From contig JACRJQ010000005.1 of assembly GCA_016215405.1 (NCBI GenBank), forward strand, positions 75,560 to 139,559: 64,000 nucleotides of DNA, given 5' to 3'. Both the position numbers and the translations under genes were made by a program. How positions within the stretch are numbered: the first letter of the stretch is position 1; the number at the start of each line of letters is the position of its first letter. Positions 37,021 to 44,045 of the stretch are shown here, piece after piece. A model generated the notes under the pieces. The model searched no databases and was not told the DNA's origin. It worked only from the letters and a program-made list of their open reading frames with translations. Origin of the DNA: Candidatus Tayloriibacteriota bacterium. Lineage in GTDB: Bacteria > Patescibacteriota > Minisyncoccia > Phycocordibacterales > UBA6065.

Positions 37021-37731
37021 ATGTTTCTTGCGAAAGAAAGCTCGCGTCCTTATCTTTTAGCAGCCGCGGCTGCCGCCGTCTTGGCCGCGCTCGGTTTTTT
37101 TGCCTATTTCGTCTACGCGGAGAGAGCGGCTCTAGTTCAGGCTCCCGTCTCGACCGATAGGGCAGCGACTTCGACTATGGTTATCCCTTTTGCCGCGATC
37201 CCGACGACAAGGGCAGCAGATCGAGCGAATGAAGAGGTCGTTTCGCCGAAATCCATCGCCGCTTCCGCGCCCGACCTTTCACCTCAAGCCGGCACGCAAG
37301 GGGCAGGGGCTCATGATCCCCTCGGCCGCTTTTGTACGGCGAACGACCTCACAGGGAGGGCGTCGTGGGAGAAAGAAGGGCCTTATCTCTCCGGGTCGGT
37401 CAGGATAAGGAATTCCTCTGGCAGCGATTGCGTCGTGTCGGAGTCGTCGTCTATCGCCATAACGTCCGGCTCACGGGTCGTCGCTTATCTCCAGGCCTCG
37501 CGTCCCGAGACAGGGTTCGTCTTGCCGCAGGGCGAGGAGAGAAGGGTCGGTATTGACTGGTCTAATTGGTGCGGGGGGGCCCTGAGCGAGCCCGCGTTCG
37601 TATTCTTTGCGCTTCCTGGGGAGGCCGGATACCTGAGGGTCCCTCTCATAAGCTCCCTCGGCTCTCCTCAATACGACGCTCCTCCGTGCGGCTCACCGGC
37701 TTCGCCGTCGATCCTTGATCTGCGGTGGTAG
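37021..37731 (+). CDS. Hypothetical secreted protein
   Basis: Signal anchor. No homology recognised. Confidence 0.4.
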   Translation: MFLAKESSRPYLLAAAAAAVLAALGFFAYFVYAERAALVQAPVSTDRAATSTMVIPFAAIPTTRAADRANEEVVSPKSIAASAPDLSPQAGTQGAGAHDPLGRFCTANDLTGRASWEKEGPYLSGSVRIRNSSGSDCVVSESSSIAITSGSRVVAYLQASRPETGFVLPQGEERRVGIDWSNWCGGALSEPAFVFFALPGEAGYLRVPLISSLGSPQYDAPPCGSPASPSILDLRW

Positions 37732-37778: not shown

Positions 37779-39680
37779 TCAGAGGCTCTCGGCGAACTCG
37801 AGGGCGGAGTCTCTCTCCGCGAGCGCCCGCTCTGCGGCTTTGGAGAGCGGCTCGGTGAGCTCGCGCGCATAGGATCCATCGGTAAACGCTTGTGACGAGG
37901 CCGCCGCGGCGCGCGCTTTTCGCACATGGAGGCGAATCTTCCGGCATATCTCGTCTATGGATTCTTCCCAAAATACCTTTTCCAGGAGCTTTGAGGCGCT
38001 ATCGGCCGCTATCGGATTTTCTCTCCCTTTTAAGACCGATCTGAGGGCGTCCGCGCTCGCCGAATTGATCCTTCCCGAGGCGAGGTCGCTCTGCCAGTCG
38101 TGTGCGTCGTCGTTAAGCTGGCGCGCGGCGATGTAGCTTTTGAAAAAAGCTTCGACCTCCCTGAACTTCCTGCTTCTCGGGGCATGGCCGAGCGTCATCA
38201 TGACGACGAGAGGGCCGAGCGCGTGGCCGAACGATTTGTCCGAGAGGATGCTTTCGTCGTAGGGTGGTATGCGGATAGGCGCTATATGCCCTTTCGCCGA
38301 TCGAGGAAGGAATGAGGACGCCGCTTCTCTCGCGTTTGCTTCGTCTATGGCCCTAAACGTCCTCCGCACATACGCCTTTCCCTCCTCGTTCGGAGAGAGC
38401 GACTCGATGATCGACAAAGACTCGCGTATGAGCACGTTAGAGAGGGGTAGGAGGCGCTCTCCTTTGGATTCGTCGATGATGTCGTCTTGGATCGAGTATC
38501 CGATCCAACCGAGCATGTTCGCGTGCCCGAGCTTCGCGAGCGTCCTGTCCTCGATCCTCTCTCCGTCCTTAAGGGCGCGAGAGAAGCGGAAAGGCAAGAG
38601 AGAGATGAGCTTCTCCATATCGCCTTTCGCGACCCTCGCTCGGCATTCTCTCGCTTGGCTTTCGAAGGGCTCTCCGAGGCCCTTGAAGAACCGGTCGCCT
38701 TCCGCTCTCGCCATGTCGAGCGCGGCTTTTTCCCGGCTGTCGTCCTCTCGCGTCGCCGTCTCTTTCTCTTCGGATAGGAGAGACAGGGCCTCGATGCAAA
38801 AAGCGGTCGTGATAGCTTCCGATCCCGCGTAGCTTCGTCGTCCGCCCTTTACCTCTTCGATATAGAGAGGGAAGGCTTTCCAAGGCGAAGAGAGGATATC
38901 TTTGGCCGCCTCATCTACTGCGCCATTTCGCCGGCCGAGTCTCGTAAGCGAGCTTATGCATATGGCTTCCTCCAGGGGGTTCACGGCTTTTCGGAGCGCC
39001 TCCGAGGCGGTATCCGCAAGCTTCTCTCTCTGCGCGCTCTCGCCTCGAAGCTCATAGAAGCGCGATATGAAATATATAAACGGATAGACGGTCTCATAGT
39101 AGAGAGAGTCGAATTTCGACCTCGCGACCGCAGAGTCGATATAAGAGGAGAGGGAGTCGAGGAACACGCCGTTAAGGCCCAGGGCGAAAGCGATGTTCGC
39201 GTTTACCGCTGTGTCGACGTCGTCCCAGCCCTTTTTCGCTTTGGCTAGCCACGTCCTGTAGGGCCCTCCTTCGTTCGATTCCGCCGAGATCAGGGCACGG
39301 ACGAAGCCTGCGAGAGGCCCGCCGCCGAGCTTTTCGCCGTAAAGCGCGAGCGACGCGATAGCGCAAGACGTGTCGTCGAGGTCGTCAGGGTAAGGGCGCG
39401 AGGCGGCTAACCTCGAGCCTCGTATCGTGTAATTCCACGTCCATTGGGGGCTTCTCTGCGACAGGATAAAGGAAGCAGCTTTCGCCTTTATCGCCGCGAC
39501 GCCTCTTATGCCTTTGGGGACGCGAGAGAGGCAAGAGAGTATGAGCGCGGCGGGGAAGACGGCCTGTCTCGACTCCGGTTGAGAGAATAAGGCGTCTTTC
39601 GAGCAGAGGCTCTCCCAGCTCCCGTTTCGCGCCTGGAGGGCGCGGAGGCGGGGTATTCCGTTTCGAATAGCCTCGTCCAT
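37779..39680 (-). CDS. Two-domain terpenoid-enzyme-like protein: N-terminal class II terpene-cyclase-like alpha/alpha-toroid domain (DxDD) fused to a C-terminal trans-isoprenyl diphosphate synthase-like domain (two Asp-rich motifs)
   Basis: A QW repeat QARNGSW at aa 17-23; DLDDT at aa 101-105 (compare SHC DVDDTA, CPS DIDDTA); a FARM-like SIQDDIIDE at aa 398-406 and a SARM-like RQLNDDAHD at aa 521-529, about 125 aa apart as in FPPS/GGPPS. Its ATG shares one nucleotide with the HK stop (TGATG). Confidence 0.55.
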   Translation of the reverse strand: MDEAIRNGIPRLRALQARNGSWESLCSKDALFSQPESRQAVFPAALILSCLSRVPKGIRGVAAIKAKAASFILSQRSPQWTWNYTIRGSRLAASRPYPDDLDDTSCAIASLALYGEKLGGGPLAGFVRALISAESNEGGPYRTWLAKAKKGWDDVDTAVNANIAFALGLNGVFLDSLSSYIDSAVARSKFDSLYYETVYPFIYFISRFYELRGESAQREKLADTASEALRKAVNPLEEAICISSLTRLGRRNGAVDEAAKDILSSPWKAFPLYIEEVKGGRRSYAGSEAITTAFCIEALSLLSEEKETATREDDSREKAALDMARAEGDRFFKGLGEPFESQARECRARVAKGDMEKLISLLPFRFSRALKDGERIEDRTLAKLGHANMLGWIGYSIQDDIIDESKGERLLPLSNVLIRESLSIIESLSPNEEGKAYVRRTFRAIDEANAREAASSFLPRSAKGHIAPIRIPPYDESILSDKSFGHALGPLVVMMTLGHAPRSRKFREVEAFFKSYIAARQLNDDAHDWQSDLASGRINSASADALRSVLKGRENPIAADSASKLLEKVFWEESIDEICRKIRLHVRKARAAAASSQAFTDGSYARELTEPLSKAAERALAERDSALEFAESL

Positions 39681-41209
39681 CAAACTTTTACGCTTAGAGG
39701 CCTCGCTCTTCTGCGCCTGTCAGCAGCTTTCTTGTCGAGAGGAATGGTGACGATGAATCTAGACCCTTCCTGAGGCGCGCTTATCACTTCTATCTTTCCG
39801 CCGAAATCCTTTTCGACGATATCCTTGGTCGTTGAGAGGCCGAGGCCGATCCCCGAATGCTCCGTTTTCGTGGTGAAGAAGGGGTCGAATATCCTGCAGC
39901 TCACCTCAGACTCGATGCCGCAGCCCTTGTCGGAGACCTCGAAGCGTATGCCGTCCGCAGACTCGAGGATGGATACGTCAACCGTTCTTTCGCCTTCCTT
40001 CGGCGAGCATATATATGAATCGATCGCATTCGATATGAGATTGACCGCGACTTGGAAGAACCGCACCGAGCTGCCATGGACGAGGATCGCCTCCTTTGAA
40101 TCTATGCGCACCGTTACGCCGGATTTCCTCGATTTGTGCAAAAGAAGGTCGGCCGCGTCCCGCGCCTCGTTCTCGAGAGAGAATATACCTACCTTGCTCT
40201 CGGAATTGAGCTGCTTGCGCACCGTCTGGACGAACGATTCGATCCTCTTCGAGGCCCTCACCGCCCTGTCTAAGGTCTCCTTGTATTCCGCGCCTTTATC
40301 GCCTGACTCGGCCGAGAGCTTTTCGACGGTGAGAGAGACGGTCGTGAGCGGATTGAGGAGGTCGTGGAAGATCCCTGACGAGAGCTTGCCGAATTCGACG
40401 AACCTATAGAGCTGGGAGACTTTCTCGAGCTGAGCCGCTTTGAGCTCGCGGGTCCTCTCTTCGACCTTCTCTTCGAGGGTGTCTCGCTCGGCCTTGAGGG
40501 CTCTTTCGGATTCGCGCGCTCGGCGCAGAGACCTTTCGAGATCCTTGTTGGAAAGCCAGGATACGGCCACTATCGCGAAGAATATGATGGAGTCTTCGAT
40601 AGCGTCTTTGGCCACCATAGGCTCCGACCTCCAAGATACGTCCGCTTGGATGATCCCCGCGGCTTGCAGATGCCCGAGGGTGATGAGGGTCGCCGCGATG
40701 AGGCCTGTTATGGCGAAACTCTGCTTCGTCCCCAAGAGTATGCTCGACATCACGATTATGGCAGCGTAGGAGAGGAGAGGAAGGGGGACTTCGATGCCCC
40801 ACGCGTATATGCCGTAGGTCGTGCCCATGAAATAGAGGCCTATGAAGAGGTAAGACGCGAGCCTCGTATGGCCGCGGCGAGAGAGGGCGAGGAGCGCCGC
40901 GAAGAGGATGATGAAAAAAGAGAATATCGTAGGGCGGAAGCCGTAGGTATCGAGGTCTGCGATCTGGGAGTATATGATCGAGGCCTCGAGCAGGATGACG
41001 GCTCCGAGCACGGTCGTGGCTATGACGTTGAATATGTGCTCGCGCCGATAGCTGTCTTCGTCGGATGACCGTGGGCGGATGCAGAGCGCGTAGATATAGC
41101 GAACACCCTGTCCGGCCGCCTGTCTCGCGCGTCTGTACGCTTTTAGGCTGGTCTCCAGGGTGTTCATGGCGCCTTTAATTATATAGCTAATTCCAAGGCG
41201 CGAATTCAC
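39680..41209 (-). CDS. Sensor histidine kinase (polytopic membrane N-terminus, HisKA plus HATPase_c)
   Basis: H-box GIFHDLLNPLT, N-box NLISNAID, and G-boxes DKGCGI and GIGLGLS. About 6 TM helices. Confidence 0.9.
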   Translation of the reverse strand: MNSRLGISYIIKGAMNTLETSLKAYRRARQAAGQGVRYIYALCIRPRSSDEDSYRREHIFNVIATTVLGAVILLEASIIYSQIADLDTYGFRPTIFSFFIILFAALLALSRRGHTRLASYLFIGLYFMGTTYGIYAWGIEVPLPLLSYAAIIVMSSILLGTKQSFAITGLIAATLITLGHLQAAGIIQADVSWRSEPMVAKDAIEDSIIFFAIVAVSWLSNKDLERSLRRARESERALKAERDTLEEKVEERTRELKAAQLEKVSQLYRFVEFGKLSSGIFHDLLNPLTTVSLTVEKLSAESGDKGAEYKETLDRAVRASKRIESFVQTVRKQLNSESKVGIFSLENEARDAADLLLHKSRKSGVTVRIDSKEAILVHGSSVRFFQVAVNLISNAIDSYICSPKEGERTVDVSILESADGIRFEVSDKGCGIESEVSCRIFDPFFTTKTEHSGIGLGLSTTKDIVEKDFGGKIEVISAPQEGSRFIVTIPLDKKAADRRRRARPLSVKV

Positions 41210-41382
41210 CGCTAACGTCCACGAGCTCGTTTCTCGCGTTCTTTCGAGCCCTTTTGTCCGAGAGGATCCTTTTTATGATAGCGCTCATGCGTTTCGATTG
41301 GCTTGTAAACCGAGAGAGGTGTCCATCGACCGGGAGCCCTTCATATGGTCTCATGTCGAGATAAAGAAAAAATAAAGAAAAG

Positions 41383-42075
41383 TTAAAGATTGTAGGTCGG
41401 ATGGCCGTTCGGGTCTATCTTGTATCCTCGTCCAGGCACCGTGTGGATGAGCTTGTTCCTCGCCTTCTTGTCGATCTTCTTTCGCAGGTTGAGTATGTGG
41501 GCTTCGACCGTGTTCGAGAAGGGATCGATCTCCTCGTCCCAGACATGCTCGAGCAGGGCGCCGCGCGAGATGACCGTGCCTGAATTGCGCAGGAGGTATT
41601 CGAGGAGCGCGAATTCCTTTCGCGTCAGATATATCTCTTTGCCCGCCCGGCGGACCCTTTGTTTGGAGGCGTCAAGGACAAGGTCGGCCACCGAGAGCGT
41701 CGGCAGGACAAGGGAGGGCGGACGCCTCATGATCGCCCTTATGCGCGAGCGCAGCTCCTCGTAGGAGAAGGGTTTTACGAGGTAGTCGTCCGCTCCGGCG
41801 TTGAGCAGGTCGACCTTATCGTCAGTTTCGCATTGGACGGACAGGATGATTATGGGGGTCGATTTCCCGGCGGCGCGGATATCGCGGCAGACCGTGTAGC
41901 CTGTCTTTTTTGGGAGTATGTAATCGAGGAGGATGAGGTCGTAATCGCACGTCCTTCCCATATAAGAGCCTTCCTCTCCGTCGCCCGCGGTATCGACCCC
42001 AAAGCAATCGGCCTCGAGGTTCGCCTTTAGGAAACTTCGTATCTCTCTGTCGTCGTCTATGACCAGGATGCGCAT
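41383..42075 (-). CDS. OmpR-family response regulator
   Basis: MRILVIDDD, the phospho-acceptor Asp context LILLDYILP, and a winged-helix C-terminus RNSGTVISRGALLEHVW. Confidence 0.9.
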   Translation of the reverse strand: MRILVIDDDREIRSFLKANLEADCFGVDTAGDGEEGSYMGRTCDYDLILLDYILPKKTGYTVCRDIRAAGKSTPIIILSVQCETDDKVDLLNAGADDYLVKPFSYEELRSRIRAIMRRPPSLVLPTLSVADLVLDASKQRVRRAGKEIYLTRKEFALLEYLLRNSGTVISRGALLEHVWDEEIDPFSNTVEAHILNLRKKIDKKARNKLIHTVPGRGYKIDPNGHPTYNL

Positions 42076-43115: not shown

Positions 43116-44045
43116 ATGAAGCACGAGATACTTCTGTACTATAAATACGCATCGGTGAGGAATCCCGAGAAGCTCGCCTCCGAGCATCGGGAGTTTTGCG
43201 CGCGACACGGCCTTAAGGGGCGCATAATAATCGCCAAAGAGGGGATAAACGGCACCCTTGAGGGGCTTTCGAAGGATACGAAGGCTTACCGCGATTTCCT
43301 CAGTTCGAAGCCCGGCTTTAAGTCGATCCACTGGAAGATAAGCGAAGGTAACGGATTCGCGTTCCCGAGGCTCTCGGTAAAGGTCCGCGAGGAGATCGTG
43401 TCTTTGTCGCTTAAGAGGTCGAAAGAGACCGACGTTGATCCGAGGAAAGTGACCGGCAAGCATCTCGCTCCTGAAGAGCTCAGGTCGTGGTTCGAGAAGG
43501 GCGAGAAGTTCACCATAATAGACATGCGCAATGACTACGAGCACAAGGTGGGCGCGTTCGAGGGCTCCGTGCTGCCGCCGCTTAGGAATTTCCGCGATTT
43601 GCCGAAGGCGCTTCCGAAGCTCAAAAAGCATGCCAAGGATAAGGTGCTCACTGTGTGCACGGGAGGCGTGCGCTGCGAGAAGGCGTCGGGGTATCTTATA
43701 AAGAAGGGCTTCAAAGACGTATACCAGCTCGACGGCGGGATCGTCTCGTATATGGAGAGATATCCCGGCGAGCATTTCAAAGGCTCGCTCTATGTGTTCG
43801 ACGGGCGCGTGACGATGGCTTTCGACGAGAAGGGCGGGATCAAAAGGGAAGTGATAGGCAGATGTGAGAAGTGCGGCGCGAAGACGGAGGAGTATGCCGA
43901 CTGCACGAATCAAGACTGCAGGAACCAGATGCTCTGCTGCAGGGCGTGCGTGAATGCCGACAGGGCATATTGCTCCGAGAAGTGCAGGAAGATACTGCAG
44001 AGGAATCCGAACGCCAGGTCGAGATCCGTGGCGAAGGGGATATAG
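43116..44045 (+). CDS. trhO: Rhodanese-domain protein TrhO/YceA (tRNA uridine-34 hydroxylase family, UPF0176)
   Basis: N-terminus ILLYYKY...GRIIIAKEGINGTLEG, the rhodanese active-site Cys in CTGGVRCEKASGYL, and a C-terminal Cys-rich tail. Confidence 0.8.
   Translation: MKHEILLYYKYASVRNPEKLASEHREFCARHGLKGRIIIAKEGINGTLEGLSKDTKAYRDFLSSKPGFKSIHWKISEGNGFAFPRLSVKVREEIVSLSLKRSKETDVDPRKVTGKHLAPEELRSWFEKGEKFTIIDMRNDYEHKVGAFEGSVLPPLRNFRDLPKALPKLKKHAKDKVLTVCTGGVRCEKASGYLIKKGFKDVYQLDGGIVSYMERYPGEHFKGSLYVFDGRVTMAFDEKGGIKREVIGRCEKCGAKTEEYADCTNQDCRNQMLCCRACVNADRAYCSEKCRKILQRNPNARSRSVAKGI

Follow-up and report, generated by a model that had tools for sequence, protein, structure and literature searches.

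A regulator, a tryptophan peptide, a sensor kinase and a fused terpene cyclase-prenyltransferase-like enzyme form a candidate peptide-signaling module in Patescibacteria

Why a bacterium with a reduced genome should keep a single gene joining two terpenoid-enzyme signatures, placed directly behind a two-component signaling system, is the question raised by a locus of Candidatus Tayloriibacteriota bacterium (GenBank assembly GCA_016215405.1, contig JACRJQ010000005.1, positions 75,560 to 139,559). This stretch of 64,000 nucleotides, referred to below as the window, carries the enzyme gene at 37779..39683(-), an open reading frame (ORF) of 634 aa from TTG 39683 or 633 aa from ATG 39680. Residue numbers refer to the 634-aa ORF, and those of the ATG-start protein are lower by one. 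The protein is 100% identical to a hypothetical protein in a metagenome-assembled genome (MAG) of Candidatus Taylorbacteria. The first-pass annotation, made from the sequence alone, had described an operon of response regulator, histidine kinase and enzyme. Its enzyme motifs QARNGSW, DLDDT, DDIID and QLNDDAHD do translate at the expected coordinates, the stop codon of the kinase gene overlaps the enzyme ATG as TGATG, and the genes upstream on the same strand encode a histidine kinase (HisKA and HATPase_c domains) and an OmpR-type regulator (Response_reg and Trans_reg_C domains). All three genes are thus present, but a fourth, encoding a 33-aa peptide (41187..41288(-)), had been overlooked, and the gene order in the window is regulator-peptide-kinase-enzyme, all on the minus strand. 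On balance, we favor the view that the four genes constitute a peptide-signaling module, a functional counterpart of ComQXPA, in which the peptide would be prenylated on its tryptophan, the attached chain cyclized and the product sensed by the kinase.

Between the regulator and kinase genes lies a gap, with a median of 214 nt, in which a small ORF is conserved. A hidden Markov model (HMM) of the peptide, searched against 28,832 stop-to-stop frames of 81 loci (designated by L numbers), recovered one ORF per locus in 70 of the 81, each time immediately ahead of the kinase gene on the strand of the operon. In nine of the 11 loci without a match, the contig had hardly any DNA upstream of the kinase or none at all; in the remaining two, L012 and L054, no peptide ORF was found by the HMM, and no shortage of upstream DNA accounts for it. 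The peptides (69 unique sequences) are 33-40 aa long (median 37) and have in common the leader M..(L/I)(I/V)KK(I/V)LT(D/N)K.AR and a single invariant Trp, the sole invariant residue of the core, which lies 1-6 residues from the C-terminus and is preceded by Pro in 57 of the 69 sequences. The middle of the peptide is variable, being hydrophobic and signal-peptide-like in about half of the sequences and polar or acidic in the group of the window. Scans of ten peptides against Pfam and NCBIfam returned no family. The ORF of the window was called by the gene caller on a Logan contig, and its relatives are called sometimes, without a name.

Two classes of peptide can be distinguished by this middle part. 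Members of the hydrophobic class (e.g., L009, L011, L026) have a basic N-region followed by 12-15 hydrophobic residues that end in a small residue before Pro-Trp, and resemble a Sec signal peptide plus its cleavage site; a polar, acidic middle is found in the window and in L016, L061, L064 and L072. Export routes may differ between lineages.

The neighborhood of the enzyme gene was surveyed in 80 loci from species genomes, with loci that have enough flanking DNA as denominators. In three relatives of ~35% identity the enzyme gene directly follows the kinase gene, with the regulator gene alongside. An orthologous kinase gene lies upstream on the same strand in 73 of 73 informative loci, directly adjacent in 71 and ~770 nt away in two, and the orthology to the kinase of the window is full-length, with E-values typically from 1e-90 to 1e-115. 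The OmpR-type regulator gene is found upstream on the same strand in 55 of 67 loci and elsewhere in the locus in five more (60/67). Recurrence of the fusion together with its two-component linkage, which had been raised for this locus beforehand, is therefore borne out. All-against-all clustering of the neighboring ORFs revealed no further recurrent gene; genes for exporters, proteases and immunity proteins were non-recurrent. A true trans-isoprenyl diphosphate synthase (IPPS) is encoded inside the operon in 14 of the 80 loci, either overlapping the enzyme stop codon or between the regulator and kinase genes, and would supply the prenyl donor.

These operon-linked IPPS fall into two classes. 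Those encoded between regulator and peptide (L015, L043, L056, L085) have Trp at position -5 before the first aspartate-rich motif (FARM), as in SEDWLLIHDD, together with RQGKYFR. Those overlapping the enzyme stop codon (L008, L021, L033, L036, L040, L051, L076) carry a small one there (H-A/S-x-LLIHDD). This difference hints at prenyl donors of different chain length by lineage.

The kinase starts at M15 (ATG 41167), in agreement with alignments of its homologues and with a gene call of 495 aa. It has 5-6 membrane segments, five of them above threshold in the family-averaged hydropathy profile, and short loops between them. Conservation of the sensor region is 0.34-0.50, as against 0.70 in the dimerization and histidine phosphotransfer (DHp) region. 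A membrane-embedded sensor of such low conservation fits a lipophilic, lineage-specific ligand, although it does not prove one.

The N-terminal half of the enzyme had been proposed to be a class II terpene cyclase rather than another toroid in which DLDDT matches by chance, and this assignment held up at the levels of profile, fold and catalytic residues. Scans of the window enzyme against Pfam and NCBIfam recognized no family, and scans of individual family members gave weak squalene-cyclase or TED matches and nothing else. The family profile, by comparison, gave E=1.9e-16 against the class II cyclase (TC-beta) domain of AsDMS, a bacterial drimenol synthase, and E=0.003 against the fungal AstC. 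In the AlphaFold2 model of the enzyme, which shows both folds at high confidence (predicted local distance difference test 94.4, predicted template modeling score (pTM) 0.89), the N-terminal domain is an (alpha/alpha)6 barrel whose nearest neighbors are class II cyclases, ranking above other toroids. A LanC or glycosidase toroid was rejected on the same structure comparison.

The residues D331, D333 and Y427, which mutagenesis established as catalytic in AsDMS (PMC12365925), align to D101, D103 and Y196 of the enzyme, and DLDDT corresponds to D101-L-D103-D104-T105, the general-acid motif DxDD(T). The pocket aromatics F281, F318 and F328 of AsDMS align to F43, Y85 and Y98. One N-terminal copy of the QW repeat, L-x3-Q-x3-G-x-(W/F), is present, with Q17 and G21 kept in at least 90% of the family. 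The family has not kept R378, R380 and R425, the residues with which AsDMS binds the diphosphate. This would suit a cyclase whose substrate lacks a free diphosphate, as in the case of MstE, a monodomain cyclase that recognizes a non-diphosphate head group (PMC12365925). AsDMS and AstC differ from the window enzyme in their fusion partner, a HAD phosphatase instead of an IPPS-fold domain, and in their motif, DxDTT instead of DxDDT. Taken together, alignment and model support a predicted class II terpene cyclase activity of the monodomain TC-beta type for the N-terminal domain.

The C-terminal domain had been described as prenyl-diphosphate-synthase-like, and this description stands in part. The model has the alpha-helical IPPS fold, with FARM and the second aspartate-rich motif (SARM), DDxxD, facing one cavity. 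In comparison, the domain scored 19.6 with the prenyltransferase domain of PvCPS and 16 with MoeN5, with clearly lower scores for class I cyclases (at most 15), the large-terpene synthase BalTS (13.8) and squalene synthase (12.6). What is not supported is chain elongation. The operon-linked true IPPS (n=12) keep GGK..R, DD..D....RR, KT, FQ..DD and GK invariant. The enzyme family keeps FARM, the Q-x-x-SARM (DDxxD) and a K/R-S counterpart of KT, but GGKxxR, the RRG after FARM and the GK after SARM, basic motifs of the isopentenyl diphosphate (IPP) site and the diphosphate clamp, are not among its conserved columns. A match to PF00348 was found neither in the window protein nor in any of 49 members scanned. 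From these columns we conclude that the predicted site for the allylic diphosphate is intact whereas that for IPP is missing, a pattern of IPPS-fold transferases and not of elongating synthases; a chain-elongating activity of the domain is thus unlikely. In trans-isoprenyl diphosphate synthase (trans-IDS)-like Trp prenyltransferases, two residues have been proposed as Trp-recognition elements, namely the Gln that precedes SARM and the first Asp of SARM itself. Both are invariant in the family (Q522, D525). Since canonical trans-IPPS carry the same Gln, Q522 is compatible with transfer to Trp without discriminating for it.

Conservation was assessed over 116 homologues of ~35% identity. Invariant residues are D101, D103, Y196, D400, Q522, D525, H528, D529 and D533, and at least 90% of the sequences keep D100, D104, T105, D404 and D526. 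The aspartates D101, D103, D400, D525 and D529, which belong to the motifs picked out by the first-pass annotation, are all in the invariant set, which excludes a chance match. The invariant or nearly invariant elements comprise YPDDLDDT, GGPY, W145, D157, N161, Y196 and R208 in the first half, and GW..Y...DD..D, R420, N450/E453, GH486-487, RQLNDDAHDW..D, G537 and W572 in the second.

Full-length relatives of the enzyme are 620-670 aa long. An indexed search returned 323 matches, and a profile search of 1.84 billion representatives returned 1,508 clusters at 50% identity with E of at most 1e-30; the best 150 of these profile matches were all full-length family members. The enzyme is present in 304 species-representative genomes, which by record title belong mostly to lineages of Patescibacteria, or candidate phyla radiation (CPR), including Levyi-, Morani- and Paceibacterota, Davies-, Roizman-, Shapiro-, Colwell- and Doudnabacteria, Saccharibacteria and CPR2. 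Many module-bearing MAGs are titled 'uncultured Gammaproteobacteria' (L013, L020, L022, L023, L027, L030 and others), and L028, L040 and L045 are titled Sulfotelmatobacter, Methylomirabilota or Vitreimonas, although their loci resemble those of CPR. Such non-CPR titles are probably mislabels or binning errors.

IPPS-fold enzymes that prenylate Trp without elongation are known: ComQ acts on ComX, StheQ on StheX, PalQ on PalX, and Ord1 belongs to the same group. The genes for ComQ and ComX accompany those for the kinase ComP and the regulator ComA, and the module described here resembles ComQXPA in having an IPPS-fold enzyme, a short precursor with Trp near its C-terminus, a polytopic kinase and a regulator in one locus. 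The presence of a cognate Trp peptide beside the enzyme, of FARM and of a Gln one turn before the second motif is common to ComQ, PalQ, Ord1, the P domain of ChrPC and the present family. Unlike ComQ, the module enzyme has an additional class II cyclase domain, and it has no sequence-level similarity to the ComQ family.

It had also been supposed that no fusion of a class II cyclase with a prenyltransferase was known, which does not hold in view of PvCPS, NctPC and ChrPC. PvCPS is a fungal bifunctional geranylgeranyl diphosphate (GGPP) synthase and class II copalyl diphosphate synthase, and likewise unites a class II cyclase and an IPPS-fold prenyltransferase in one polypeptide. It differs in combining a beta-gamma cyclase with a true elongating prenyltransferase through a flexible linker and in releasing a free diterpene diphosphate, whereas in the window enzyme a single beta domain packs on the alpha domain (pTM 0.89) and the IPP site is not conserved. 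NctPC and ChrPC are maturases that act on ribosomal peptides and consist of a prenyltransferase fused to a cyclase (Hubrich et al., Chem 2024, as presented in passages of a 2026 review, PMC13290415). According to the same passages, the trans-IDS-like P domain of ChrPC prenylates an internal Trp with C10-C20 donors, and its MstE-like C domain then cyclizes the prenyl chain (PMC13290415). Compared at the level of these published descriptions, ChrPC and the module enzyme have a prenyltransferase and an MstE-type monodomain class II cyclase in one chain, the domain order of the module enzyme being cyclase, then prenyltransferase. The substrates of the earlier maturases are reportedly proteusin, Nif11 and lasso precursors; the module precursor, unlike these, is a peptide of 33-40 aa with its own leader, and the module is in every case coupled to a dedicated kinase and regulator. 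Because the operon contains every element of ComQXPA, and because ChrPC and NctPC set the precedent for the fused enzyme, we read it as a peptide-signal module with a Trp-modifying maturase.

What the analysis establishes are the folds, the conservation of catalytic residues, the conserved peptide ORF and the linkage of the genes. The route that we infer, in each of its chemical steps and from the order of prenylation and cyclization to the prenyl chain length, export and sensing, would run as follows. The 33-aa precursor would be bound via its conserved N-terminal leader. The C-terminal domain would bind a prenyl diphosphate through FARM, SARM and Mg2+ and ionize it, and the indole of the invariant Trp would be alkylated, as by ComQ, PalQ, Ord1 and the P domain of ChrPC. 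In the cyclase domain, Asp103 of DLDDT would next protonate the distal double bond of the attached chain with the help of Tyr196, and the chain would close to a (poly)cyclic terpenoid, in the manner of the C domains of ChrPC and NctPC. Prenylation before cyclization is favored because of the ChrPC analogy and because the diphosphate-binding arginines of AsDMS are absent from the cyclase domain. The lipopeptide might subsequently be trimmed and released, and detected by the membrane-embedded sensor of the co-inherited kinase, whereupon the OmpR-type regulator would feed back on the peptide-kinase-maturase transcript via CTTTA repeats.

Several observations weigh against this signaling interpretation. 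Neither a conserved exporter nor a conserved leader protease accompanies the module, and genes for ABC (ATP-binding cassette) exporters are close downstream in four loci only. No clear Shine-Dalgarno sequence precedes the peptide ATG in the window, although one is present in 41 of 70 loci, and a search of the 64-kb window for a prenyl synthase gene found none. The order regulator-peptide-kinase-enzyme and the OmpR-type regulator depart from ComQXPA, with its order comQ-comX-comP-comA and its NarL-type ComA. By HMMER, the alpha domain has no similarity to ComQ, Ord1 or any IPPS; a sequence search of solved structures gave no match for the C-terminal half, and the family profile recovered neither Ord1 (9v4g) nor an IPPS chain from PDB sequences at E of at most 10, Ord1 being part of the structure library. 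Alignment to the operon-linked true IPPS by hhalign is weak (E=0.0099), with RQLNDDAHD placed on FQ..DD..D and the GK loop deleted. Assignment to the Trp-prenyltransferase branch hence follows from fold, context and motif logic, because sequence similarity is near absent. Finally, the SARM is a full DDxxD here, as opposed to the pseudo-SARM NDxxD of ComQ and StheQ.

The same enzymology could instead serve an effector, that is, an antimicrobial or host-directed lipopeptide, with the two-component system exerting autoinduction or immunity control, as NisRK controls nisin, and not transmitting a dedicated cell-cell signal. The signal-peptide-like middle of about half of the peptides would suit such a product, as would the pairs of ABC exporter genes ~1.2 kb downstream in L025, L046 and L086 and the single exporter gene 0.5 kb downstream in L064; moreover, the characterized peptides with polycyclic isoprenoids are treated as natural products and not as pheromones (PMC13290415). 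We nevertheless regard an effector as unlikely: the conserved gene set is minimal, with no recurrent immunity, exporter or protease gene, kinase and maturase are inherited one-to-one, the kinase being a dedicated orthologue, as in ComQXPA, and the module extends across many lineages with very small genomes.

Alternatively, the enzyme might turn a prenyl diphosphate directly into a free cyclic terpenoid that serves as a membrane lipid or as a small-molecule signal, with the two-component system acting in regulation only and the small ORF being a kinase modulator or untranslated. Both sets of catalytic motifs are intact, prenyl synthase genes are linked in 14 of 80 loci, the succession of class II and ionization-dependent chemistry in one chain follows the logic of bifunctional diterpene synthases, and the membrane-embedded sensor of the kinase could read a lipid. 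Small membrane proteins that modulate kinases, such as MgrB and SafA, are also well established. The first-pass annotation had leaned in this direction, toward a membrane-lipid or hopanoid-like role switched by the two-component system. That role is unsupported, because it leaves the conserved Trp peptide and the one-to-one coupling to a dedicated kinase unexplained, and the gene is no sign that hopanoid-like lipids are made by an organism of reduced genome; we rate a free terpenoid product of any kind as distinctly improbable. An assembly line of the PvCPS type, in which the C-terminal domain would elongate to GGPP or longer and the N-terminal domain cyclize the product, would agree with the two folds in one chain but appears very improbable. 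GGKxxR, RRG and GK are unconserved in the enzyme yet invariant in the true IPPS of the same operons, none of 49 members matches PF00348, and there would be no need for the separate IPPS that 14 operons contain.

CPR bacteria account for a large share of bacterial diversity and are host-attached, with minimal genomes. To our knowledge, cell-cell communication among them is undescribed; our literature searches, which were aimed at CPR terpene enzymes, returned nothing relevant. We likewise know of no other signal of the quorum-sensing type with a cyclic terpenoid moiety, and of none native to CPR symbionts. Both the fused maturase and a ComQXPA-like circuit are of known kinds, and what sets the present system apart is the CPR-wide distribution, the dedicated kinase and a precursor family of its own. 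The wider proposal, that the module represents a widespread, self-encoded CPR pheromone, namely a short peptide bearing a cyclized terpenoid on Trp, made by the fusion enzyme and read by a dedicated membrane kinase, is put forward tentatively and at somewhat under even chances. Should it be correct, a single peptide, enzyme and kinase would provide a testable handle on how CPR bacteria sense density or host association, and the cyclic-terpenoid modification of peptides, so far a matter of a few natural-product clusters, cyanobacterial and others, would be extended to signaling. The enzyme would then also be a compact single-chain catalyst for lipidation and cyclization on Trp peptides. The four-gene module has been kept in 304 species-level genomes despite the minimal gene sets of CPR.

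Table 1. Positions of the module genes, enzyme domains and leader elements in the window
Feature	Position	Strand	Basis
OmpR-type response regulator, 230 aa	41383..42075	(-)	Response_reg E=2.4e-25, Trans_reg_C E=8.7e-27
Three CTTTA direct repeats, 11-bp period, candidate regulator boxes	41362..41388	(-)	Read from sequence
CTTTA copies	41384-88, 41373-77, 41362-66	(-)	
GGTCGA hexamer, 5' leader of peptide gene	41326..41331	(-)	Motif count upstream of peptides
Precursor peptide gene MSAIIKRILSDKRARKNARNELVDVSGEFAPWN, 33 aa plus stop	41187..41288	(-)	Peptide HMM; longest ORF reaches 41354
Polytopic sensor histidine kinase, 495 aa from ATG 41167	39680..41167	(-)	HisKA + HATPase_c
Enzyme, predicted N-terminal class II terpene-cyclase beta domain, aa 1-311	38751..39683	(-)	
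N-terminal domain sites: QW motif; DLDDT; YY195-196	39615-39635; 39369-39383; 39096-39101	(-)	
Enzyme, C-terminal trans-IPPS-fold prenyltransferase-like domain, aa 312-634 plus stop	37779..38750	(-)	
C-terminal domain sites: FARM DDIID; Q-x-x-DDxxD; K-S-F-G-H	38472-38486; 38097-38120; 38223-38237	(-)	

The DNA upstream of the peptide gene carries two further motifs (Table 1). CTTTA-N6-CTTTA occurs in 7 of 70 peptide-upstream regions (L009, L010, L014, L026, L043, L064, L067) and in 0.2% of background 200-nt windows, an enrichment of ~50-fold. The repeats lie ~80-110 nt upstream of the peptide gene, with a -10-like element after them in several loci, and in the window the first repeat overlaps the regulator stop codon. 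They are candidate binding sites through which an OmpR-type regulator could mediate autoinduction. In 27 of 70 loci, as against 3.2% of background windows, GGTCGA is found in the 160 nt ahead of the peptide start codon, and it lies 25-60 nt upstream in most of these 27 (carriers include L009, L011, L014, L016, L061, L069, L070, L073 and L086). The hexamer is often placed between complementary arms of differing sequence, which hints at a hairpin loop, although only 13 of 27 minimum-energy folds place it in one. A search of the GGTCGA leader against Rfam gave no match.

Among the genes around the module in the window is one for an AI-2E transporter family protein (PF01594; 44147-45196 (+)), ~2 kb away; the family is common, and a link to the module was not seen in the other loci. 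An ORF at 37021-37731 (+), convergent with the enzyme gene, encodes 236 aa with an N-terminal membrane or signal segment and a weak match to DUF4232 (E=0.006), and does not recur beside the module in other loci. A UPF0176 gene with a rhodanese domain lies near the module both in the window (43116-44045 (+)) and in a relative from Colwellbacteria (L001, 12815-13699), which is probably local synteny within Paceibacteria, outside the module.

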